IMG/VR virus record: IMGVR_UViG_3300032038_000035
Coordinates: 1 to 64,000 of that record
Strand: one strand, 5' to 3'
Length of the DNA: 64,000 nucleotides
Source: a virus
Taxonomy: Duplodnaviria; Caudoviricetes
The notes beneath the pieces were generated by a model, which saw only the letters and a list, made by a program, of their open reading frames with translations, made no database searches and was not told the origin of the DNA. Position 1 is the first letter of the stretch; the number at the start of each line of letters is the position of its first letter. Below are positions 3,001-62,696 of this stretch, piece after piece. Position numbers and translations under genes: made by a program.

Positions 3001-3811
3001 CATCATCGAGCATTTGCCATTCGCAATATGCGCCCTTATAAGGATTAGAGTTTACCGGTAACTTCTGAAGTTGTTGCATAGATTGCTGATTAGCTTCTGT
3101 GTAATAAGCTTCAAAGTTACACATAAATTTACCAACATTAAAATCCATTGATAGATTTGAAATCAATGGACTTGCATTTATATATTGAGAGAACTGTGTT
3201 ATCATACATTGTCTCAATGTAACTTTAAGAAGTAATAAAGTCTCTGGTCCATTCTTGTATACCTTAGACTTGATGTACTTCATATATGAAGTATTGAGAC
3301 TGTTATTGGTTTCTTTATCATATCTGGCTGTATATACATATTTTACTTGAGATAATTTCTTTACAGATTTATATTCCTTAGCTGTTATAACTACAGGATA
3401 GTCTAACATGAAAGGTATACTACCTGCATAGAATACAGCAGTATTGTCGAGTACGAATGTATATATGCCAGTCTCATCATTGACTGTACCATATGTAAGA
3501 ATATCAGATTCTCTTAATATAAGAATAGCTGTTGCAGTTGCAGGATTGGGTAAAGGATATCCAATCTGCTGAAGTGCTGCCATCTTATAAAATGATTTTA
3601 AATATTTGGCATATGTAGGATAGAATTCACGTCTGGCTATAGATACAGCATGATGGGTATCGTTTTCAACTGTACCCATTACTTCATTTATATAACCAAA
3701 CTGTGATGTCATGTATAATTCAGATGCATCAAAATCAAAATAGTTCGGGGCTATTTCTTCTAGCCATTTTTGCATACTGACGTCTTTATCAGTATAATCT
3801 ATATAAGCCAT
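1..3811 (-). CDS. Baseplate wedge-like virion protein (T4 gp6-like), >1270 aa, runs off the window edge
   Basis: Missing from the ORF track, presumably because it has no stop in the window. ATG at 3811 with GAGGTG RBS; reads MAYIDYTDKDVSMQKWLEEIAPNYF...YTTLGEDGNF...IGGSSVKTLDDFKRDV...TTDSDL, a gp6/baseplate-J-like pattern; lies among structural genes. Confidence 0.65.
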   Translation of the reverse strand, partial: MAYIDYTDKDVSMQKWLEEIAPNYFDFDASELYMTSQFGYINEVMGTVENDTHHAVSIARREFYPTYAKYLKSFYKMAALQQIGYPLPNPATATAILILRESDILTYGTVNDETGIYTFVLDNTAVFYAGSIPFMLDYPVVITAKEYKSVKKLSQVKYVYTARYDKETNNSLNTSYMKYIKSKVYKNGPETLLLLKVTLRQCMITQFSQYINASPLISNLSMDFNVGKFMCNFEAYYTEANQQSMQQLQKLPVNSNPYKGAYCEWQMLDDETLRLCFPNNPYFNPTYNSQITVDVYTTLGEDGNFDRYDGPLSCRIHSEKYLYNNSIRMTGKIIGSAIGGSSVKTLDDFKRDVIAAYATNKTYTTDSDLQVMFDKTARTTRNRIIFSKKRDDCFERMYNAFLLIKDASGYIIPTNSITCEFFHDDIETTADDGSTISKIGYFNDNDIIIKAGTIWKYHDVSPSNYDLEPIYVANDDGTYYLSTDPIGNVKTDKVDGDGNPLYRQVDYLTQEDSEGNLVPVYMSTPDGIYKTIINPYCYFIRGYMEYSDKLIDTDGNVIDTESGEYIIDYDALPSEYIGEDGLVIDTHILNENELIKKIVDGEQVTVYTVCKKNTLVVDDEGHMILDDQNTPFYIIQDYGVLRKAIYTDNRNIVTTDLRKYMVYPDTVNNIITSTSLSLNDRWNIMHDYLQKYVDIINDPNSTEEELRKARAVLSEAGVDGIASNLNERIDELVNAMDNVYTYTNPYLLRYNLRTGISAYYKNTFNDVYPLDLNYVEDNSIIQFNASGLTVSRNALFGENFYKLTVSIQPSVADINLKELLYVDNAPDTNVTNASNNIYAAYDGIVERFVFIPDTTGGLHSKSGSVYMIVRYFAGSTESMELTKTEDYFNGDINLKNYIDANFTGSLYETSLITGIRVGSAVTYSKDVLDQKIFNVQLSYTTDLIAGSKFIQGNIIATLRPRDSMQVRIIAMFKNKNDVNNDYYIPFIFESYDQALDSYNYSAYIKATDQISTKDLLLVNDGIFNSLTADIDDGIAIDPENCFFNIGIFVKYDDDNIPPSDPNDSTQSIYRNVEYVNGYTLTNVYENPQTDPVKLLELYRFIRSVSKNQKSIYTTITPDTLQAVDVTKTYTELREVPLVRAEWAKNPGNVYDLFKILKTNHDWISDAYNLLDNNFTINMKFYNTYGRSRYLTIGNNRIIDADNDGINDETMYQLDSVTLRFKFGVKLRALVDASDFKSRFINYVRTYIEDFNSVENHEMSIHISDLYTKLN

Positions 3812-3839: not shown

Positions 3840-5108
3840 TTATCGTTCTTGCTGATTTTCGTTATTCAATCTGCTATTATAAGGACGTGGACGCCATCTC
3901 AATTTATAAACTTTGCGTAAGAAGTCAAATGTAATAAATGGTGCACCAACCATAGATGCTCCACTAGGAGTACCATCGACATCTGCAAATACTTGGGAAT
4001 GTGGTACATACCGAGGATTTGGCTGTAATATATTACCGGTTTCAGATTCATTGGTACCATTAGAACCAAGTATACCTGCATTGTAGTTGAAGTCTGCAAA
4101 TATTTGAGGAGTTAAAACCTCTGGCAATCCACCAGAAAATTGTATTTCAATACCATTATCCATTCTATCTTCCCAAGTAAATCTATAATTGGAATGAGGA
4201 ATAGTGGTAGGAAATGCTCCAGTTATTTTAGCCCAGTACAAAATATCAGTACCATCAGGCTTAGTTATTATTTCATATATCGATGTGGCATAGTCTATTA
4301 TAGAAGTGCCATAATAGAATCTAGCTGCAGCATAGTCATGATATGGTGATATAATACCATATGAAACTAAATCTATATATTTTATCCATGCATCAAATAA
4401 TGCAGTTATATCCATAGATTCATTTTCTCTAAATTGTACTTGTGTACTTTGATTAGTACGTACGCTGTTAGAGTTGCCTGCATATGATGTAGTAAATCCA
4501 GTAAACGGTTGATCTAATCTATATTCTTCTACTTGGAAATCGGGTAAAGAGAAATCCATTGCTCTAGGTGTTAGGAATGATATAAAATGATTATCCTCAT
4601 TTACACCTCCATTACCATCTTGACTCATGCCATATAAATCTACATGTGTTAAAGATTGTAATATATGTGGTTTAGTGACTAATAGATTTGAGAAGTACGG
4701 ATCTTTAGCTACTGCATCAAAAATGTTTAGATCTGGCTTTACTATAAAACAATATTTTTTACCATATGCGAGTTCATCACCCGGATATATAGTACGATAT
4801 CTATTAAAATATCTGGAATCATATGATACCATTTTATCATCTGTTTGCATACCTAATGCTTGCGACATATTATCTGCAAAATCTAATTGCTGTAATATAC
4901 CACTACCTGTAGCGGATTCATTACCAGAAAATATATTATACACTGCAGGGTTTAATGAATTATTTTCAAACTGTTGGCTCTCCCGAAGTGGTCGGCTAAC
5001 TGATGCATGTGTGTAATTATATAAACTCATGCCTGAATCATTTGTAGGTAAATTATTTACAATGCGATATGAATCGCTAACTTTTCGATCTAAAATACTT
5101 TCGCTCAA
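3840..5108 (-). CDS. Tail-tube-like / tube-initiator virion protein
   Basis: FRENESMDITALFDAWIKYI...YWAKITGAFPTTIP resembles the T4 gp19/gp48/gp54 tube fold; late-type promoter upstream. Confidence 0.5.
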   Translation of the reverse strand: MSESILDRKVSDSYRIVNNLPTNDSGMSLYNYTHASVSRPLRESQQFENNSLNPAVYNIFSGNESATGSGILQQLDFADNMSQALGMQTDDKMVSYDSRYFNRYRTIYPGDELAYGKKYCFIVKPDLNIFDAVAKDPYFSNLLVTKPHILQSLTHVDLYGMSQDGNGGVNEDNHFISFLTPRAMDFSLPDFQVEEYRLDQPFTGFTTSYAGNSNSVRTNQSTQVQFRENESMDITALFDAWIKYIDLVSYGIISPYHDYAAARFYYGTSIIDYATSIYEIITKPDGTDILYWAKITGAFPTTIPHSNYRFTWEDRMDNGIEIQFSGGLPEVLTPQIFADFNYNAGILGSNGTNESETGNILQPNPRYVPHSQVFADVDGTPSGASMVGAPFITFDFLRKVYKLRWRPRPYNSRLNNENQQER

Positions 5109-33711: not shown

Positions 33712-33962
33712 AAATTTCCCTCCTTAAAGAAAATTATAAGCATTTTATATGGTTTATAAAATATAATTACCCGTAGCCTATTAAAGCTACGGGTAATTAT
33801 ACTAAAAAGGATTGTGCTTGTAATTGGGATATAGATATAGAAGCAGTTTACTAATGTGTTATAAAAATACATACGTAGCTAATAGCTACGTATGTATTTT
33901 TACTGTTTACCACAAAGTCGTATGTATAAGGAGCAATATTTGCTATGAGATTAATATAATGT

Positions 33963-36900
33963 TTACCCGAAATAATCTTTTATTACTTTCCTCTTTAACT
34001 CTATAAGCACTTTATTACCAAATAGGTTAGTATAAACTGAAGGAGTCTTTCTAGCAAGTATAGACAAAGGAGATACAAATGCACTAACTTCTTCCTCAGG
34101 TCTAAACTCGCTCCAAGGTTCCTGTCCTTCTTCTATAACATGAGATACAACGCCCTTAAGAGCACAGAAGTTTGTGGTTTTATCACCCTTCTTTATTATA
34201 TCCTTATGCTTTATATAGAATTCAATGAGAATACCATCGCCAACTTCTTCACCTTTGACTTTACCATATTGAGTTGTACTCTTCTCGGCAGTTTCAGTTA
34301 AGAGTTGGCCACATTTATAGAAGTTATTATCTGTAGGATTCTTATACTTATCTAAGAACTTATCTTTCTTCTCTATCTTCTTATTATAGTCTTTAACTAT
34401 CTTCTGTAAAGAAGGAGACAATTCGGATATATCTACAGTGTAATACATCTTTATGTCTAATATCTCACCACTATCAGTTGCTTTCAGTGTCGTAGAGTTA
34501 GATTCTACTAAAGACTCTTGAAGATTATTCTCGCCTAATGCTTTAGAATATTCCTCTAAGAATTTAGCAACTTCTTCATCACCATTATGGTTGTCAAATA
34601 CTATAAGAGGATCACCAACGTTTACATGGTCTCCTATTTTAACCATTCTATCTACTTTAGAATTAGCAGGTAATGCTTTAGTCTTCTTTACTATAGCATA
34701 GTATGCTAATTGCTCAGACAGTTTCTTTGTCATAGGCTCGGAGTCTTCAAGAATATCGTCTATAGATGTAATAGCAACTTTAGCAAGTACACCGATATTC
34801 ATAGATGCACCAATGTCATCTGAATTCTTTGTAAATGCTCTCTTCTCAGCAGCTAGAACTTCATTCTTCTTAAACTTATCGCCGACTTTTAATTTCGTAC
34901 TAAATTCAAGCTCAACATACATTCCGTCTGCAGAGTTTTTCTTTATTACAGGTTTAGAGTCAAATGAGTCATGTGTGCCATCTTTATATTCAATGATATA
35001 AACACCATCTTGCTCATCTACAACTTTACCATCCTGCTTAGCTACAAAGCAGAATTCATTGTGCATGTGATAAGGAACGATAGATTCTACCTTATTGCCT
35101 ATAAGTACAGGGCTCATCTCATCTGTAAGCACCATATGTGCAGTTTGTCCTCTCATCATCGCTGATCTCTGAGGGTCATCGTGTCTTAATGAACCCGGAG
35201 TGAGGAGTTCTGCAGGTGTCATAAGCTGAGCCATGTTGAGTTCGTTTACTTCATCCATAGGAGTTATATCAACGTATCCATTAGTAGAAGTAATATTAGG
35301 CTCAAGAGTAAGAAGTCTTATAATACCATTATTACCAGCATGGTCGGTTGTAGCACCGAAGATACCAACCATTGAGTCATCATATGCTCTCTTAGCCATA
35401 GTATAGCCATCTGTCTTGTTTATACCGGACAGGGATATATTCTTGGCAGATGTTGATGCCTTGATATTAACTGAGTGAGTTTTATCAAGAGTCATTACAG
35501 GATTGAGTATCGACTCATCTTCTATAAGAGTTGCAGATGACAATGCAGACATTACCACATTAGGATTAACTGATATCTTAGTAGGATTCTTCTTATAAGC
35601 AGTCTTTCTATAATTACCATATGCGTTAACTACTGCCTGATATACGATCTGAGATACAACTTCGTTACCTCTTATACGCATATTAATAAGGTCATTAGAA
35701 GAAGCATATTGGTTATTAACAAGAAGCTTACATGTATAGAAGAATACGCCTATTAATGTATAAGGCATATTGAAATCTTTTAATATTTCAACAGTTTTGG
35801 GATCTAATAAGAAGTTTTTAAACTGATCGAGATTCATTGCCTGATTTGCACTTGAATAAAACATCGGGAGCATATCTATATATGTATCTCGACTATTAAG
35901 CTCAGCAAATGTATACTCTTCAAGAGGTAAACCATATGTGCCATTTAATAATAGCTGATTTTCAAATGGATATTTATCCCATACGATTACACAATCTTTG
36001 AGCTGAATTATTCCTTTGGAGAATCCATAATTCTTGCCATATTTAGCTATTACAGCTTTTTCATTATCAAGTCTCTCATAAGGAATTCCTGTTTCTTGCA
36101 TTACCTTATCGAAACCTTCGCAGAATAATAAGAAAAGAATTACAGGAATGAATTTATCAAGTACCTTTACTCTGGTATACGCTAATTGAGATTGTCCGGT
36201 CTTGGTATATTTTATCTGAGATCTGTCAGCTTCAGGTATTAAATCATATAATAGATCAGAAAAACTATTTCCTAATTCTATTGGTATGTATTTACCTGAA
36301 GAAACCTTATATCCAACAGGAATCTTTTCACCTTCTTCATAAGGTTTTACATCACAGCCATGCTCTTTAAGAAATCCAATAAGCTCAGTTATATCCAGAA
36401 TAAATACATTTTGTCCAATGTTAAACTTGGTAACAGATTTAGAAATATAATCGAAATCTAATGTAGTTGCATATTTAGTATTCTTTACTTTAGCATTACC
36501 ATATTTAACATGACACTTATCATTTGCCATAATATATTTCTTTATAGCAGCAGTCTTAGAGTCTACAGATTTACCATGTCTGAATACTGTACACTTCTTA
36601 TACATAGTACAGATCTGAACTTGGTCAGGACCTATCTTTACAACAGGCTTGAATATTCTTTGCTTGAGTATGTGTTTCTTACTACCGCCAATGAATACAT
36701 AGCAATCGTCTATGATGATAGGTACATCAAATCTGAGAGTATGTGTGTGATTGAATTCATCTCTAAGATGATAAGTAAGAGTCTTCTTCTGATTAAATAC
36801 ATCAGATGTATCTTCCTCTTCTATAGACTCTATGAATACTTTAATATCTGCATCTGCTAATGATGCTACTGCATTATTAATATCTCTCTTATATTTTTTC

Positions 36901-38306
36901 TCTGTATAAGATTTATCAAAGTTTACATACTTAGATGATTTGATATAAGGGTTATTGGTAACGATAGCATTAGTGTAGTCAGACTCATCTATTATCTTAG
37001 ATGCCATTTCTTCTACATCTTGAGATAATATTTCATTCTGTTTAGCTATACCGGCATCTATAAGCTTAAGAGCTTTCTTACTTCTCTCAGGCATATAGTT
37101 ATTAACAAAGACTTTCTCTTTAACTTCGTCTTCTATAATAGCACCAATTACTTCATCACTTTCACCAGATAAATCAGGATTATTGTCTAAGAAGTTATTT
37201 ACTGTATCAGATATTTCATCAGACAATTTATCTGTCATTGATACAGAATCATCTTCTTCCAATTCTTCTGCTTCAGCTATACTAAGCTCAGTATCAAGAT
37301 TGTACTTCTTCTTAGTAGGTTTAGCTTTTACAGAAACATCTGTGATTTCTTCTTTCTTTTCTGCATCAGAAGAAAGATCAGATCCTGTAAATCTTCTGAC
37401 CATAGTGTTAACTATAATCTGTCTTCTAAGTTCTTCCTCAGGAGGAACTTTCTCAGTCTGAATTATTTCTTCTTCATCTTCATCCACTGTATAAGTGTAT
37501 ATATGCATCCTTCTAAGTTGTGTCTTAAATTTAGCATATATCATTTTAGCAGCTCTCGGATCTAACATATCCGGAGTAAGCTTGAGCTTTAAGAACTCAT
37601 GCTCTTTTTCATTTACTATAATTATTTCAGCATTAAGATCTGTCAGTGGCTTTAATAAAGCTTGGAACCTATATAGGCATACTAATAATATAGATATAGG
37701 ATTATTCATAGAATCTTTGCTAAGACCTATAGTAGCTCCTGCCTTTCTCCATTCTGCATATGAGATATATACAATTTTAGTCTTATATCCATTTGCGAAC
37801 GGAAGTGTATTAGCTATTTTATTAGCAGTAAACTTTATATACTGATCGCACATTATTTGTATAGATCTATTAAGCCTATATTGGAAAAATAAATCTTGCC
37901 ATTCACTGATATCTTGTATCAGTGATGTATGTCTGGATGCAAGTGCTGCAACCATTTGAGGTCTTCGATAAGCTAGATATGAATCTAAGCTTTCACTATA
38001 CATCTTAGGCATCTCGTTTATGTAATTACGTTTTACGAGCTTTGTGCCAATTTTCTCTTTATATATGACATCCGCTGTCATATATTTTATTCCATATTTA
38101 CGCCACACTACAAAATCTGAATTAAGGCTCCTAACAGCGGCTTCCCTATTAGGGTTTAATATAATAACACCGGTTTCTTTTCCATGCGGTGAAGTAGGTA
38201 AAAATAAGTGTGGCTGATTCTTGTAATATCTATTATTTACAATAGAAGTGTAAGCAACTTCCATTGCTGGTGTATTACTAATCACAATATCACAACCTTT
38301 ACACAT
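33963..38306 (-). CDS. Phage multisubunit RNA polymerase beta-like subunit, probably the virion RNAP
   Basis: HDDPQRSAMMRGQTAH, GDKTTNFCALKGVVS and SPLSILARKT correspond to RpoB motifs; ends early like split phiKZ-type beta subunits; late promoter directly upstream (start may be GTG at 38285). Confidence 0.9.
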   Translation of the reverse strand: MCKGCDIVISNTPAMEVAYTSIVNNRYYKNQPHLFLPTSPHGKETGVIILNPNREAAVRSLNSDFVVWRKYGIKYMTADVIYKEKIGTKLVKRNYINEMPKMYSESLDSYLAYRRPQMVAALASRHTSLIQDISEWQDLFFQYRLNRSIQIMCDQYIKFTANKIANTLPFANGYKTKIVYISYAEWRKAGATIGLSKDSMNNPISILLVCLYRFQALLKPLTDLNAEIIIVNEKEHEFLKLKLTPDMLDPRAAKMIYAKFKTQLRRMHIYTYTVDEDEEEIIQTEKVPPEEELRRQIIVNTMVRRFTGSDLSSDAEKKEEITDVSVKAKPTKKKYNLDTELSIAEAEELEEDDSVSMTDKLSDEISDTVNNFLDNNPDLSGESDEVIGAIIEDEVKEKVFVNNYMPERSKKALKLIDAGIAKQNEILSQDVEEMASKIIDESDYTNAIVTNNPYIKSSKYVNFDKSYTEKKYKRDINNAVASLADADIKVFIESIEEEDTSDVFNQKKTLTYHLRDEFNHTHTLRFDVPIIIDDCYVFIGGSKKHILKQRIFKPVVKIGPDQVQICTMYKKCTVFRHGKSVDSKTAAIKKYIMANDKCHVKYGNAKVKNTKYATTLDFDYISKSVTKFNIGQNVFILDITELIGFLKEHGCDVKPYEEGEKIPVGYKVSSGKYIPIELGNSFSDLLYDLIPEADRSQIKYTKTGQSQLAYTRVKVLDKFIPVILFLLFCEGFDKVMQETGIPYERLDNEKAVIAKYGKNYGFSKGIIQLKDCVIVWDKYPFENQLLLNGTYGLPLEEYTFAELNSRDTYIDMLPMFYSSANQAMNLDQFKNFLLDPKTVEILKDFNMPYTLIGVFFYTCKLLVNNQYASSNDLINMRIRGNEVVSQIVYQAVVNAYGNYRKTAYKKNPTKISVNPNVVMSALSSATLIEDESILNPVMTLDKTHSVNIKASTSAKNISLSGINKTDGYTMAKRAYDDSMVGIFGATTDHAGNNGIIRLLTLEPNITSTNGYVDITPMDEVNELNMAQLMTPAELLTPGSLRHDDPQRSAMMRGQTAHMVLTDEMSPVLIGNKVESIVPYHMHNEFCFVAKQDGKVVDEQDGVYIIEYKDGTHDSFDSKPVIKKNSADGMYVELEFSTKLKVGDKFKKNEVLAAEKRAFTKNSDDIGASMNIGVLAKVAITSIDDILEDSEPMTKKLSEQLAYYAIVKKTKALPANSKVDRMVKIGDHVNVGDPLIVFDNHNGDEEVAKFLEEYSKALGENNLQESLVESNSTTLKATDSGEILDIKMYYTVDISELSPSLQKIVKDYNKKIEKKDKFLDKYKNPTDNNFYKCGQLLTETAEKSTTQYGKVKGEEVGDGILIEFYIKHKDIIKKGDKTTNFCALKGVVSHVIEEGQEPWSEFRPEEEVSAFVSPLSILARKTPSVYTNLFGNKVLIELKRKVIKDYFG

Positions 38307-39100: not shown

Positions 39101-39144
39101 GCATCGCCAATTATGCTTATATTCCGGTGTGGTGTAACCTATAA

Positions 39145-39498
39145 TCAGGTTGCACCGCACCATTTGCAGGCATATCCCCCGCGAATCTGTCTCCCGCCAC
39201 AGCAGGGACAGGTTTCCGTGGTGAATATTATCTGCGGATAATATTCACCACTGTCGCGATCGAAATGCATCACAGTGAGACCAATGTCTCGCTGCTGGCA
39301 AATCGTCACGACCGCAAGGAGAGCAACCGTCAGCCCTGTGGCGTACAGGGTTAACTGGTCACAATCCTCGGGGAGCTCGCTGCGGACATGCTCAGTGAGC
39401 GCATCCACATCGAGGGGATTTACCTGAGTATCGAACAGAAAGTCCGACACATCAGGTATGTCGTGCCTGCCACGACATAATCCATATGTGTATTTCAT
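39145..39498 (-). CDS. Small alpha/beta protein (GRH motif) with C-terminal Zn ribbon, in a stand-alone cassette
   Basis: GLCRGRHDIP...LYATGLTVAL...HFDRDSGEYYPQ followed by CPCCG...CKWCG; GGAGGTG RBS; visibly higher GC than its flanks. Confidence 0.75.
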   Translation of the reverse strand: MKYTYGLCRGRHDIPDVSDFLFDTQVNPLDVDALTEHVRSELPEDCDQLTLYATGLTVALLAVVTICQQRDIGLTVMHFDRDSGEYYPQIIFTTETCPCCGGRQIRGGYACKWCGAT

Positions 39499-39581: not shown

Positions 39582-39658
39582 ATAACAATATGATAGTAAT
39601 TCATTATACAAATCCTTATACGGACCTAAAGTTTTATACCTCCAAGTTGAAACTGGTA

Positions 39659-39697
39659 GAAAATTATTCCATGGGTATTCCCCATGGAATAATTTTC
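39659..39697. terminator. Terminator hairpin
   Basis: gaaaattattccatggg-tattc-cccatggaataattttc. Confidence 0.75.
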
Positions 39698-39843
39698 CGC
39701 TTATTTATATAAAACGTATAACAAGTGCATAACTGACATTCAAAGTCAGCTCCTATTATTAACCTCTTTTTATTAAACGGAAACTTTCATTTTCACGGGA
39801 AAATAGCTCTATAGGTCCCCCTACCCTATAGAGTTATTTTTCG

Positions 39844-41145
39844 TCATGGCTTTATTGGATATCCTGTATATGATTTGCCATCGAGATTTTGTTGATCTGT
39901 TATGGTAATATCATTTACTGCAAATGAATTGTAATATGCAAGATTCAGATATATTATAAATCTATATGTCTTATATGGATCTGAATTCTTTATAGTCATT
40001 TCATACTTAGACCAATTTATAGAGAAGTCAGATTCATATTGACCATCTATATCATTCATAATAAGTCTAGGTATTAACAATAGTTGCATATCATTACCAT
40101 TGGCAATGATATCATCCATCACGCGTTTTAAATCTGGCTGTATACACTCAGTTATACTAAATGTATCATCTTTACCTTCATTTTGTTTTTCTGTCTTTAT
40201 TATATTAGAGCTATATAGAGTATAACCTTTCTCTATATATGGATGATCTTGGAATGTTCTCTCAAATGTATAGAGAGGTATATATGCACTATGATCCGAT
40301 TCATGGAGACATAACTTAAACTTCTTATGAAGAACTCGTCTAGTCCAAGCGTAATAAGATGCGATTGCATTAAATTCACATTCTATTTTAAATGTAACAT
40401 TCGTAGGGTCTTCTACCATATTTTTTCTATTCATCTCTTCACATTGAAGATCCGTGAATGTTGAAATAATATTCTGCGGATAAAATAAAAAGTACTCATC
40501 ACTACTAGTAGAATTTCTCATCTTATATGATATAGGATAAGATGCATGTTTTCTAAGGTAATGAGTCAATACAGGAATATTATTCTTATCATCTAAATTA
40601 ATACCAACTATTTCGCATACATGATATAATAATGCTTTGGGTATTAAAGATTCCAAAGATGTTGGTATATAGATAGATCTATTAAACACAAATGTATTAT
40701 TGAGATAATTATATAAATCTAATGCTGAATAATATGTATTACACTGAATCGCTATATCAAAATTTACTTTATATCTATTTATTTTGAATGCCAGTCCAAT
40801 GCCAAAATCATTATCGGAAAAGAAATTCTGTTTAGCAAGACCAGAACCACCTGCTACACCCTGATGCCATACTATCTGAGTGCCTGATAAAAAATCATTG
40901 GATGTTGCGTTATCATAATTCTCTACAGTGGGTCTTATTATCATAAACGGTCTTTGCTTAGCTTCAAATTCTTTATGTGTATGTAAATAACGTCTAAAGT
41001 ATCTAAATGACGTTTTTGTACTTATGCTTCTATCTGCAAGAAAACCTTTTGGCATATTATGCTCCAGATACATCTGTACTGCATTAATAACATTGCCATA
41101 CATTTGTGATATAGAGGTAGCTGCAACGAAGAAAATTTTATCCAT
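39844..41145 (-). CDS. Probable virion structural protein (neck/tail-completion-like)
   Basis: Late promoter at 41166; fold not confidently recognised. Confidence 0.45.
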   Translation of the reverse strand: MDKIFFVAATSISQMYGNVINAVQMYLEHNMPKGFLADRSISTKTSFRYFRRYLHTHKEFEAKQRPFMIIRPTVENYDNATSNDFLSGTQIVWHQGVAGGSGLAKQNFFSDNDFGIGLAFKINRYKVNFDIAIQCNTYYSALDLYNYLNNTFVFNRSIYIPTSLESLIPKALLYHVCEIVGINLDDKNNIPVLTHYLRKHASYPISYKMRNSTSSDEYFLFYPQNIISTFTDLQCEEMNRKNMVEDPTNVTFKIECEFNAIASYYAWTRRVLHKKFKLCLHESDHSAYIPLYTFERTFQDHPYIEKGYTLYSSNIIKTEKQNEGKDDTFSITECIQPDLKRVMDDIIANGNDMQLLLIPRLIMNDIDGQYESDFSINWSKYEMTIKNSDPYKTYRFIIYLNLAYYNSFAVNDITITDQQNLDGKSYTGYPIKP

Positions 41146-60364: not shown

Positions 60365-60787
60365 TTATGTCAATAATCCAACTATCAGTATTAACACCGT
60401 TAATACTGATATAACAGTAGTGATTATATTTATCACTGCTGTATAGGTTCCTATCTTTAATACACTCATACTATCATCTATATAATCTTCATTAGTAGTA
60501 TATGATTTATCATCGGGATGACTCTCATAAAATACATTTACCTTTTTCATAAATATACTTCTACTAATGATAGTTGATACTAATAATATTATAGCAGCTG
60601 ACATCATAATTATGGTTAAATATGATGCTACTCCACTATATATTAGTAATAATATAGATAATACTATTAACTCTGCACTAAATAGGATACCATCCTTAAT
60701 ACATTTATCCATTGTTAGTTTTGCATTCTTTGCGCCTTTAATATATGAAGATATAGATATAGTATTCATGATATTCACTTCTCTCAT
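60365..60787 (-). CDS. Membrane protein
   Basis: Three hydrophobic segments. Confidence 0.65.
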   Translation of the reverse strand: MREVNIMNTISISSYIKGAKNAKLTMDKCIKDGILFSAELIVLSILLLIYSGVASYLTIIMMSAAIILLVSTIISRSIFMKKVNVFYESHPDDKSYTTNEDYIDDSMSVLKIGTYTAVINIITTVISVLTVLILIVGLLT

Positions 60788-60795
60788 ATATTTTA

Positions 60796-61212
60796 TTATA
60801 TAAAAGTTCTTTTCAAATTCTCATAATCTATATCTAACTCACATAGTCTATCTAATTTATCTCTATAACTAATATATTCATCTATATTAGTTATATTAAA
60901 TATAGGATGACTATATATAAATTGATATAGACTATATCTATTATATATATGTGGATTATTTTCATATAGTATATTTAATATTCTATATTCTATAGTAGTC
61001 ATATACATATCTTTATAAGGAGATATTAGTATATAATCTAAATCATTATCTGTTATATAGTCTATATCTTCTATATGTATATTAGATATATTATCATCGG
61101 ATATATTATTGAATATACTTCTTGTATTAATAAATTCTTTTATATCTTCTTTACTATATGTAACTAATAATATATCTCTCTTATATAATACTCTATACTT
61201 ATTATAATACAT
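60796..61212 (-). CDS. Hypothetical protein, extremely AT-rich
   Basis: GAGGGGG RBS; TATATATAATA motif upstream. Confidence 0.55.
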   Translation of the reverse strand: MYYNKYRVLYKRDILLVTYSKEDIKEFINTRSIFNNISDDNISNIHIEDIDYITDNDLDYILISPYKDMYMTTIEYRILNILYENNPHIYNRYSLYQFIYSHPIFNITNIDEYISYRDKLDRLCELDIDYENLKRTFI

Positions 61213-61309
61213 ATATGTATCCCCCTCTTTCTGTTTATTAATCTTATTATATATAAACCATTATATCTTTAATATAAATCCGGATTTATAATAACTCTAA
61301 GGGGAATTT

Positions 61310-61340
61310 GAAAATTAGGGACCTTTGGTCCCTAATTTTC
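61310..61340. terminator. Terminator-like hairpin
   Basis: gaaaattagggacc-ttt-ggtccctaattttc. Confidence 0.7.
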
Positions 61341-61439
61341 TGTAATAGTGCAGGTTAAGTTTAGAGTATTTGATAGTATTGACATAAACTGGTATTTTAA
61401 AGTATTGGTAGGTTAGACTTTGTATTATATATAGAAGAA

Positions 61440-61720
61440 AAAATAAGTGGGAGACCCTTAGGCCTCTCATGTGTTGGTCTTATTGTCTTTTATGTATCTC
61501 TTAATTCTCTCTATTTTCTGGTCGTTTTTGGTCTCGGATGTGTTTGTGGGGCGGACCGCCCCCCTGAAAATTCGCTCCGCTCATTCTTTTTTTCTCCGAC
61601 CTTCGGTCTCTAATAGGAAGCCCTACCTGACAATACGCTTCAGTTTCCCTAAACTCCGGATTTAGCCACTACCCCTTAAGGTCTGTTATCCTCACGTCTA
61701 GTCCCCCTGGCAACATCATT
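61440..61720. other. Strand-asymmetric non-coding element: candidate replication origin or second late ncRNA
   Basis: Pyrimidine-rich plus strand, five GGTC sites, GGGGCGG-A-CCGCCCC palindrome (61548-61562), promoter at 61719-61731. Confidence 0.4.
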
Positions 61721-61731
61721 ACGTTATTGTT
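61719..61731 (-). promoter_or_regulatory. Late-type promoter AACA-N6-TAA with no downstream CDS
   Basis: aaaaatatAACAataacgTAA; the upstream context is shared with 62249-62261. Confidence 0.65.
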
Positions 61732-61744
61732 ATATTTTTTTTTA

Positions 61745-62250
61745 AAAAAAAATAATTTATATTTTTATCTTTTTGGATAGAGATAAATCTATAAATTGGA
61801 TATAGCAATATGTAACAATGCAACGTCTTGTTGAGTAATATCTAGAGAATTTAAAGTGAGCTCATGTAATGAAAGACATACAAATGAACGTATTAGATAC
61901 GGGTGAGCTTAGATCGAAATCAATAAGCTCTTATGCTACAATCATTACGGTGAACGAACTTTCAAGCTAAGCCTGACTCATAATCATGAGATTAACCTTT
62001 CTTCAGTGAACGTCTAGAAACCCCCTCCCTGGTGGTTAGCGTAGTGAGTTCAGGGGTAATCGAGTCTTTCGACAAGCCTACTTTTCATTCATAGTTTTAC
62101 ACCCTATTCGCATAATGTACTTTCGTACTTCTGTTTTTCACACTATCATATGTACACCTTTTGAGCATACAAAGGACATGACTGTTCCATTCCCGCGGTC
62201 ATATCCAGACAATCACCTTGCCATGTACTCGCGTACCTAGATTCCGGTTT
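61745..62250 (-). ncRNA. Large ornate structured ncRNA (~500 nt; core 61840-62242)
   Basis: Own late promoter, terminal hairpin plus T tract, ten nested helices, and GCGA/GAAA/GAAA/UUCG tetraloops and G-U pairs all on the minus strand; no ORF. Confidence 0.75.
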
Positions 62251-62261
62251 AACTATATGTT
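62249..62261 (-). promoter_or_regulatory. Late-type promoter AACA-N6-TAA driving the ncRNA
   Basis: aaaaatatAACAtatagtTAA. Confidence 0.7.
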
Positions 62262-62273
62262 ATATTTTTATTT

Positions 62274-62315
62274 AAAAAAATATAGTGAATACCAAAATTT
62301 GGTATTCACTATATT
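62274..62315 (-). terminator. Intrinsic terminator
   Basis: aatatagtgaataccaaa/tttggtattcactatatt plus T tract. Confidence 0.85.
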
Positions 62316-62318
62316 ATG

Positions 62319-62696
62319 CTATATAGCATAGCCTACTTTATCTATATTGTAAGTATAGACACCTTTACCTGAATAGGTAACTGATATAGCATACATATCA
62401 CCAGATACAAATTCAGGTTTTAGTTTCTTAGTAGTATCTCCTGTTATGTAATTACACCAAGGAAGTATTCCTCTATTATATAAAGCTTCATCTATAGCTT
62501 CATATAATAGAGTACATTCTCTACCAGTGCCTTGGTATACTATAGCAGTACTATGTGTGTTATAGCATTTATACTCTATGCTCTCATATAGATCTGGCCA
62601 TATATGCTTCTGTTGTTCATACCATGTTTCATATAATGCTTTGGATTGACCTATAGCATTATCTACTAAAACAGAAATTTCATTAGGCTCTACCAT
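62319..62696 (-). CDS. Hypothetical protein located between two ncRNAs
   Basis: AAGGAGTG RBS, TATATTATA motif upstream, own terminator. Confidence 0.7.
   Translation of the reverse strand: MVEPNEISVLVDNAIGQSKALYETWYEQQKHIWPDLYESIEYKCYNTHSTAIVYQGTGRECTLLYEAIDEALYNRGILPWCNYITGDTTKKLKPEFVSGDMYAISVTYSGKGVYTYNIDKVGYAI

Follow-up and report, generated by a model that had tools for sequence, protein, structure and literature searches.

Large structured RNAs with no known job are rare and have repeatedly come with unusual biochemistry. ROOL and GOLLD are large ornate RNAs of Firmicutes and their phages, and ROOL was first seen in rumen metagenomes. Here we describe an RNA gene in a 64,000-nucleotide (nt) stretch of phage DNA, positions 1–64,000 of the IMG/VR record IMGVR_UViG_3300032038_000035 (the window; all coordinates are those of the window). 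The minus strand at 62250–61440 is free of open reading frames (ORFs) and constitutes one conserved gene for a large structured non-coding RNA of ~810 nt. The RNA family is absent from Rfam and occurs in seven lineages of AR9-like jumbo phages from ruminant guts. Like ROOL and GOLLD, which are often encoded by stand-alone genes on phages, the RNA is several hundred nt long and intricately folded, and it has the rumen habitat in common with ROOL. Unlike them, it has no match to their covariance models in any of the seven lineages, its small core surrounds a hypervariable middle, and two lineages carry an internal promoter. In kind it is closest to ROOL and GOLLD, though unrelated to them by model.

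By its sequence the host of this gene is an uncultured, distant AR9/PBS1-like jumbo phage from ruminant guts. The source record is 102.7 kb long, with an estimated completeness of 41%. The window codes for an RNA polymerase beta-like protein of the multisubunit type (gene 33963–38306), a large terminase and virion proteins; its nearest cultured relatives by window proteins are Bacillus phage BpSp and Staphylococcus S6-like phages, at ~27% identity, and in a virion protein the phage is only ~27% identical to AR9, BpSp, S6 and LPJP1. Public sequencing runs containing the stretch come from bovine, goat and sheep gut metagenomes of 12 studies. The late promoter of AR9 reads AACA-(6N)-TA/G, with the last base as the transcription start (Lavysh et al., PMC5312081); AR9 5' untranslated regions (UTRs) reach 491 nt, and some of its genes possess early as well as late promoters (PMC5312081). 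The RNA gene resembles AR9 late units in that both of its promoter boxes fit the consensus, with the last A as the start, and in the use of intrinsic terminators (PMC5312081). It differs from them in that its product is a non-coding RNA, and the genomes of AR9, BpSp, S6 and LPJP1 hold no match to the model of its core. We infer that the gene is transcribed late in infection, by the multisubunit non-virion RNA polymerase of the phage.

The original prediction for this locus, made from the sequence alone, had placed here (61745–62261) a single RNA of ~500 nt with ten nested helices under its own late promoter. The minus-strand non-coding RNA gene with its own AR9-type late box in an AR9-like jumbo phage is borne out by the comparative evidence. 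The boundaries were drawn too narrowly: the conserved RNA runs to ~61440, and past a second promoter box, at a distance of 390 nt, come the conserved partner strand and the 3' domain.

Conserved core of the RNA

Relatives of the locus were found through the downstream 138-amino-acid (aa) protein, with homologues down to 37% identity, and through the upstream protein, which has more distant ones. Six further lineages were obtained: L011, L012 (with L018 and L020), L022, L023, L024 (5' part only) and L025. In all lineages the RNA gap occupies the same place, just upstream of the same pair of small genes and on the same strand. The conserved core, ~130 nt in all, forms two blocks on either side of a hypervariable middle domain of 190–450 nt, which P4 encloses. 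We define the family by helix P1, the linker AAU, helices P2 and P3, the long-range helix P4 and the element Z, in this order and upstream of the 138-aa gene family, and the window carries all of them. The RNAs of L022, L023 and L025 are compact, 317–399 nt to the terminator, and follow the order P1 (a hairpin of 4–5 base pairs, bp), AAU, P2, P3, P4 5' strand, variable middle, P4 3' strand, Z and terminator hairpin. Nature thus offers minimal (~320 nt, L022 and L023) and expanded (~810 nt, window) versions of the RNA, of which the minimal suits structure work. The core features of the window are listed below; box 1 opens the gene, and box 2, inside it, separates unit 1 from unit 2.

62246–62249, minus strand: P1 5' strand AACC (RNA nt 2–5), pairs with GGUU at 61997–61994; C-G becomes U-A in L012 and L023
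61991–61997, minus strand: P1 3' strand GGUU and conserved linker AAU
61977–61990, minus strand: P2 hairpin CUCAU-GAUU-AUGAG; compensatory changes U-A/C-G and C-G/U-A; 15-nt loop insertions in L012 and L024
61962–61976, minus strand: P3 hairpin UCAGGC-UUA-GCUUGA; A-U becomes G-C or G-U across lineages
61952–61966, minus strand: P4 5' strand CUUGAAAGUUCGUUC; its first four bases (five with the next A) are common to the P3 3' arm
61866–61948, minus strand: local domain closed by GUAAUGA/UCAUUAC, holding the hairpin 61930–61905 (GAGCUUA..UUCG..UAAGCUC) and CGUAU-CUA-AUACG
61844–61861, minus strand: P6 5' strand GCUCACUUUAAAUUCUCU, predicted to pair with 61597–61578 in the minimum free energy (MFE) structure of the 812-nt RNA
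61563–61577, minus strand: P4 3' strand GAGCGAAUUUUCAGG, in unit 2, behind box 2; 15 of 15 bases paired with 61966–61952
61550–61566, minus strand: Z element CAGGGGGGCGGUCCGCC, a G-rich single strand with the family consensus CRGGRG-N3-4-GRKCCGYC

P4 is fully paired in all six lineages that reach it, over 11–19 bp and with nine compensatory columns; these pairs were counted by our own script, since MAFFT misaligned the P4 3' strands. Compensatory columns are also present in P2 (two), P3 (one) and P1 (one). In the covariance-model alignment of P2 and P3 across all lineages, which takes in one probable false match (alignment A6; L017, E=0.01), 97% of cells are paired and the covariation score is reached in none of 500 shuffles; in slid controls the paired share falls to 18–42%. 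When the full RNAs are folded by MFE without constraints, P4 emerges in the window, L011, L012 and L025; in L022 and L023 a repeat finder detects it, as inverted repeats of 19 nt and 17 nt, respectively. No other complementary run between unit 1 and unit 2 comes near it in length, either in the window or in L011. P2 and P3 are free to vary in their loops, while the linker, the stems and Z are kept.

Further helices of the window have counterparts in L011. The closing helix of the local domain, GUAAUGA/UCAUUAC, is identical in the two, and its inner hairpin covaries (GAGCUUA/UAAGCUC against GGUCUA/UAGACU). At both places of the predicted P6, L011 has a 10-bp helix of different letters (UUUUCAACUU/AGGUUGAAAA). 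A local helix UGAAGAA/UUCGUUCA that would compete with P4 was dropped, as it is not kept in L024.

The middle domains of other lineages have peculiarities of their own. ACUGGA(A/G) occurs six times in L011 (~4300–4470) and three to five times in L025 (~3060–3140), against an expectation of ~0.3–1, and L025 also has tandem GUGACUC heptamers; neither type of repeat is found in the window lineage. Part of the L011 middle domain (4330–4414) is 79% complementary over 85 nt to DNA past the terminator and upstream of the next gene (4683–4767), and in L022 the middle domain (3526–3545) is 85% complementary over 20 nt to DNA past the RNA terminator (3727–3746). If intramolecular, such pairings would cross P4; they could also mark a target site in the downstream leader, and no equivalent was seen in the window.

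Sequence constraint

The stretch is 98.9% and 99.5% identical to those of the relatives L005 and L006, and the adjacent gene for a 125-aa protein 89.7% and 93.1%. Because identity in the RNA exceeds that of the adjacent gene, the stretch is, by this sequence comparison, under strong selection, and the constraint on the RNA is ~10 times stronger than that on its protein-coding neighbour. The three substitutions in L005 fall in the P3 loop, in a G-C pair that becomes G-U (C-to-U) and in the UUCG loop, the last two lying within the local domain. In the more distant L007, whose flanking protein is 82% identical, both GUAC hairpins carry insertions and GUAUGC/GUGUAC is replaced by GUAUC/GAUAC, a compensatory change.

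The compensatory changes also bear on whether the element works as RNA or as DNA. An origin, packaging site or regulatory region acting at the DNA level might be suggested by the A/T-rich tracts and inverted repeats of the gap. However, some of the compensatory changes involve G-U pairs, which are consistent only with RNA from the minus strand, as the original prediction had noted of its own helices; a late promoter and terminators frame the gene, and contigs from RNA libraries cover it. We give a DNA-level element next to no credence.

Relation to known RNA families

The original prediction had seen no sign of a known RNA class, and the covariance searches agree. A cmscan run of all 4227 Rfam models finds nothing at gathering score on the 64 kb, nothing relevant at E<=10 on 61200–62500, and nothing at E<=1 on L011, L012 and L022–L025. 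No covariance-model match was found to ROOL, GOLLD, OLE, HEARO or raiA. RNase P RNA, tmRNA and tRNA yield neither a model match nor, for tRNA and tmRNA, a detection by ARAGORN. For group I and II introns there is again no match; the gene upstream is closed by a stop codon and a terminator, and the RNA-library contig X16 is colinear, hence unspliced, through the large expansion described below. 6S RNA, a rod with a conserved central bubble, has no Rfam match either; here the P4 domain has a hypervariable middle, which is branched in L022 and L023. T-box leaders, marked by Stem I and its specifier loop ahead of an aminoacyl-tRNA synthetase or amino-acid gene, do not match, and the downstream genes are small proteins of no assigned family; Z presumably bears a loose likeness to the T-box sequence GGGUGGUACCGCG, and the T-box idea was not upheld. 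That the RNA belongs, in diverged form, to one of the catalogued families (ROOL, GOLLD, 6S, T-box, group I intron, RNase P or tmRNA) would agree with the rumen origin, the large size and the phage-borne, ROOL-like setting. Against it, no such family appears even at E=10 in the window or at E=1 in the six other lineages, ARAGORN finds no tRNA or tmRNA, and the RNA-library contig is unspliced through the expansion, so that this possibility is barely worth entertaining. The gene adds to the signs that AR9-like gut jumbo phages hold many non-coding RNA genes missed by current annotation.

Searches with the locus itself have a similar outcome. A covariance model of the 5' core has one match in the record of the phage itself and none in AR9, BpSp, S6, LPJP1 or one IMG/VR relative. 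The gap has no blastn match among 50,697 phage records, and neither downstream protein has a tblastn match among phages. Searches for related loci by flanking proteins returned nothing, and by terminase one relative. Pattern scans gave chance matches or nothing in viral_contigs, nothing in genome_contigs, and L018 and L020 of the L012 lineage plus chance matches in metagenome_contigs.

Contigs from RNA libraries

Assembled contigs from cattle-gut RNA libraries cover much of unit 1. Contig X16 (426 nt) spans 61812–62236 along its whole length; X17 contigs from the same study cover 61813–62064 and 62076–62238; and X18, from a second cattle study, covers 61835–62082. The flanking genes and unit 2 have no contig in X16, X17 or X18; an uncovered part proves nothing, and this was used neither for abundance nor for an absence of unit 2. 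A further X17 contig matches both flanks of 62009–62127 but has 182 other letters in place of 117, from which it follows that this cattle RNA library also contains a diverged relative whose expansion differs. These contigs have limits as evidence for an RNA gene: they show neither RNA ends nor strand, and an RNA library may contain DNA. With a compact, covariation-supported core that is present in cattle-gut RNA libraries, the RNA is open to direct probing.

Promoter boxes and transcription units

The features that delimit transcription within the gene are as follows.

62250–62278, minus strand: promoter box 1, an A/T tract, AACA at 62261–62258, N6, T at 62251 and the predicted start A at 62250
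61812–62250, minus strand: 5' RNA piece (unit 1), ~439 nt, with its 3' end somewhere between 61812 and the U run at 61744
61744–61797, minus strand: A/U-rich hairpin followed by U9, a possible unit-1 terminator, conserved in L005 and L006
61720–61743, minus strand: promoter box 2, A9, AACA at 61731–61728, N6, T and the predicted start A at 61720
61440–61720, minus strand: 3' RNA piece (unit 2), ~280 nt, with P6 3' strand, P4 3' strand, Z and terminator; homologous stretches in all lineages
61439–61466, minus strand: terminator-like hairpin GAGGCC-UAAG-GGUCUC followed by a U run; equivalents directly after Z in L022, L023 and L025, and 75 nt later in L011

Box 1 (62261–62250) is the late box that the original prediction had recognised as AACA-N6-TAA, and it equals the AR9 late consensus (PMC5312081). 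At this place AACAUAUA-N-(G/U)UAAAC is kept in seven of seven lineages and opens the gene-free gap in each. Exact matches to ATATAACA-N6-TAA occur in the 64 kb only twice, at box 1 and box 2, and AACA-(6N)-T(A/G) stands directly upstream of both predicted 5' ends, 62250 and 61720. Across the window, 16 of the 55 starts predicted from AACA-N6-TR boxes fall into non-coding DNA, which makes up 14.7% of the sequence; this is about twice the chance expectation. Other intergenic ATAACA-N6-TA boxes are found at 33849 (minus strand) and 30226 (plus strand), and the box at 33849 (UUUAUAACACAUUAGUAAACUG) closely resembles the RNA gene's own promoter.

Box 2 is present in the window and in L011, and not in L012, L022, L023 or L025. 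Including its A/T tract it is nearly identical in the window and L011, although the two differ strongly around it. Because of this near-identity, and because an A/U hairpin with U9 precedes the box, the gene probably makes two RNAs that pair with each other. The internal late box would lead to transcripts of ~440–500 nt and ~280 nt, which would come together in trans by way of P4 (15 bp) and P6, perhaps beside a read-through form of ~810 nt. Such an arrangement would be reminiscent of two-piece (permuted) tmRNA and split rRNAs, in that a fold that is continuous in relatives would come as two transcripts held together by conserved helices. It would differ from them in having no sequence or structure relation to either, and in a split that would stem from an inserted promoter rather than from permutation or processing. 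If true, the passage from a one-piece to a two-piece RNA through an inserted promoter is an unusual route of RNA gene evolution.

Several points weigh against two transcripts. The activity of box 2 is read from its sequence. L012, L022, L023 and L025 manage with one promoter, which means that a split is not essential to the family and that the fold works in one piece. Contig X20 bridges 61918–61703 and thereby links unit 1 with the far side of box 2, which shows a continuous molecule, at least at the level of DNA or of read-through. The hairpin at 61744–61797 is not picked up by a terminator scan that requires G+C. A single continuous transcript of ~810 nt, in which P4 forms in cis and the internal box is inactive or adds a shorter 3' isoform, would account for the single-box lineages, where P4 folds in cis, and for the bridging contig, and the MFE of the 812-nt RNA is a coherent structure. 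It leaves aside the near-identity of box 2 and its A/T tract between the otherwise divergent window and L011, and the A/U hairpin and U9 ahead of the box. The ends of the X16 and X17 contigs at 61812 and 61813 also speak for a separate unit 1, as a weak hint only, since both come from one study. We regard the single transcript as possible, if on the doubtful side, and retain two pairing RNAs as the probable arrangement.

Lineage-specific expansion and the ten-helix model

The ornate region on which the original prediction was built lies largely outside the conserved core.

62006–62216, minus strand: lineage-specific expansion, ~210 nt, closed by GUGAUUGUCU/AGACGUUCAC; holds most of the 5' arms of the ten-helix model and four side hairpins
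62225–62236, minus strand: hairpin GUAC-GCGA-GUAC; longer in L007 (GUAUG...CAUGC), with variable hairpins at this place in L011, L012 and L024

In place of the expansion, L011 has 18 nt, L024 14 nt and L012 38 nt, and the whole 5' domain is reduced to a loop of 5–6 nt in L022, L023 and L025. On this sequence comparison, the ornate region is a lineage-specific expansion within the P1 domain, strongly constrained within its lineage. A part of it, 62130–62070 (GGGUGUAAAACUAUGAAUGAAAAGUAGGCUUGUCGAAAG), aligns weakly with 61998–61950 of the core (GGUUAAUC-P2-P3-GAAAG), ~3 standard deviations above shuffles. A partial duplication of the core as the source of the expansion was considered and set aside, a z of ~3 being too weak to claim it.

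In the model of ten nested helices, a structural or catalytic RNA of ~500 nt (62250–61745), perhaps tied to the virion or to packaging, would be held together by long-range pairing of ten 5' arms with ten 3' arms. The arms are indeed present on the minus strand in the described nested order, and each pairs fully with its partner over 4–8 bp. The side hairpins are likewise real and covary, with insertions in both GUAC hairpins of L007 and a compensatory change of GUAUGC/GUGUAC. The late box, too, is genuine. As a fold, however, the ten helices fare poorly. The best structure that contains all ten has an energy of -84.0 kcal/mol, 18 kcal/mol above the MFE of -102.1 kcal/mol; when the comparative helices are imposed as constraints and the P4 strand is kept free, the energy is -90.2 kcal/mol. 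Eight of the ten 5' arms lie in the expansion and are absent in L011, L012, L024, L022, L023 and L025. These relatives keep 3' arms nonetheless, because the arms belong to other conserved helices: GGUUAAUC is the P1 3' strand with the linker, CAGGCUUA is part of P3, UUCGUUCA is the P4 5' strand, and the UUUCA arm overlaps the UCAUUAC strand of the local domain's closing helix. Relatives without the 5' arms retain all four helices.

Individual changes point the same way. The U-to-A substitution in L005 breaks the proposed TAGGCTTG/CAGGCTTA helix (UAGGCUUG/CAGGCUUA in the RNA) but falls in the P3 loop. GAUUACC is not kept in L007, where it reads GUACAUC. The partner CUAGAU of the outermost helix is missing in L011 and L012, although UCUAG is kept; UCUAG can pair instead with the conserved CUGAAGA, a pairing that is invariant. 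Covariation among homologues thus supports the side hairpins and P1–P4, and not the ten long-range helices. We judge the single ten-helix RNA very improbable. CUGAAGA also resembles the hammerhead motif CUGANGA, but it reads CUUGAAGA in L024 and is absent in L022, L023 and L025, and the hammerhead was dropped as a candidate.

The folding energy does not set the RNA apart from shuffled sequences: the MFE is no better than that of shuffles (z -0.23 for the minus strand and +0.14 for the plus strand), and the expansion alone has a z of -0.99. These null scores weigh against a structured RNA; we do not take them as evidence against one that is A/U-rich.

Possible function

Taken as a whole, a gene for a conserved structured non-coding RNA, probably in two pairing pieces and acting in trans by our guess, is the best explanation of the locus, and we hold it with moderate confidence. 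The functional part is the least certain. As a guess, the RNA would be a stable scaffold or decoy that acts in trans at a late stage of infection, with the P1-P2-P3 cluster and the purine-rich, Shine-Dalgarno-like Z strand as the recognised surfaces. Z is purine-rich and could pair with CCUCC-like sequences. Throughout the lineages it shares its first five bases (UCAGG or UCGGG) with the P3 5' arm, which makes P3 and an extension of P4 by 4–5 bp mutually exclusive, and by this exclusion Z could alternate between an exposed and a paired state. This match of Z with the P3 arm, however, takes two forms only (A or G), which corresponds to few independent events; Z has no consistent pairing partner in the family, and its likeness to a Shine-Dalgarno sequence is loose, with GGAGG in only three of six lineages. 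A trans-acting scaffold or decoy with a switchable Z strand would be our best guess, a tentative one of low confidence. A fuller scenario, in which the gene was split by a duplicated late promoter, its halves join via the 15-bp helix, and the switchable Shine-Dalgarno-like strand acts late on translation or on C-rich regulatory RNAs, strikes us as decidedly unlikely. A CsrA-type sponge was dropped as a family feature, as enrichment of GGA and ACUGGAR is confined to the L011 and L025 middle domains and is not seen in the window.

The main functional rival is a long cis-acting leader or attenuator, in which the RNA and its terminator would control late read-through into the genes 60796–61212 and 60365–60787. 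The RNA precedes the same gene pair on the same strand in all lineages, and the terminator of L023 ends ~70 nt before the start codon. The exclusive pairings of P3 and extended P4, together with arm sequences repeated by the terminator, resemble those of attenuators. There is also a precedent in AR9, in the 5' UTRs of up to 491 nt and the genes with early and late promoters (PMC5312081). In the window, L011 and L012, however, 230–600 nt of A/T-rich DNA intervene before the gene, with more terminator-like hairpins (61337–61310). Early-type A/T boxes also separate the RNA from the gene. Conserved pairing of the terminator's 5' arm with an antiterminator was not found, and in the window two terminators and a further promoter lie between unit 1 and the genes. 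On balance a leader appears unlikely, and a trans-acting RNA remains our tentative choice.

Neighbouring genes and other elements

The RNA gene is flanked on the same strand by the following features.

62319–62696, minus strand: upstream gene, 125 aa, ending with a stop codon followed by a terminator hairpin
62279–62315, minus strand: intrinsic terminator of the upstream gene, a 17-bp hairpin followed by a U run, conserved in L005–L007
61310–61337, minus strand: second terminator-like hairpin, perfect, AUUAGGGACC-AAA-GGUCCCUAAU with a U run after it, located past the RNA and ahead of the downstream gene
60796–61212 (138-aa family) and 60365–60787 (140 aa), minus strand: downstream pair of small genes, 3' of the RNA gene

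As the original prediction had it, the gap is devoid of a credible gene: the longest ORF in 62318–61213 has 51 aa. This ORF (61315–61470, minus strand) runs across two terminators and is probably spurious. The predicted folds of the 138-aa and 125-aa families have a pLDDT (predicted local distance difference test) of 80–81 and no fold match in the PDB at E<=0.001. Pfam and PHROGs searches of the neighbouring proteins give nothing beyond a sub-threshold match to Trans_reg_C. Upstream of the locus in L011 (1–1062) and L023 (1–1374) lies an anaerobic ribonucleotide reductase gene with LAGLIDADG and intein-type insertions, according to precomputed Pfam matches.

Elsewhere in the window, 39595–39715 and 39731–39845 on the plus strand form two short ORF-less units; in both, an ATAACA-N6-TA box is combined with a strong terminator hairpin. 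As candidates for small late RNAs, they carry C-rich motifs that are anti-Shine-Dalgarno-like: the first contains ACCUCC, and the terminator loop of the second is UCCCCCUACC. A pairing of Z with these two candidates (39595–39845) was considered and rejected, the duplex energy being no better than that of shuffles (p ~0.06). Nearby, the minus strand at 39130–39497 has a G+C content far above its surroundings and a perfect AAGGAGGUGAUAU ribosome site before an ATG at ~39497, and is probably a small gene of foreign composition.

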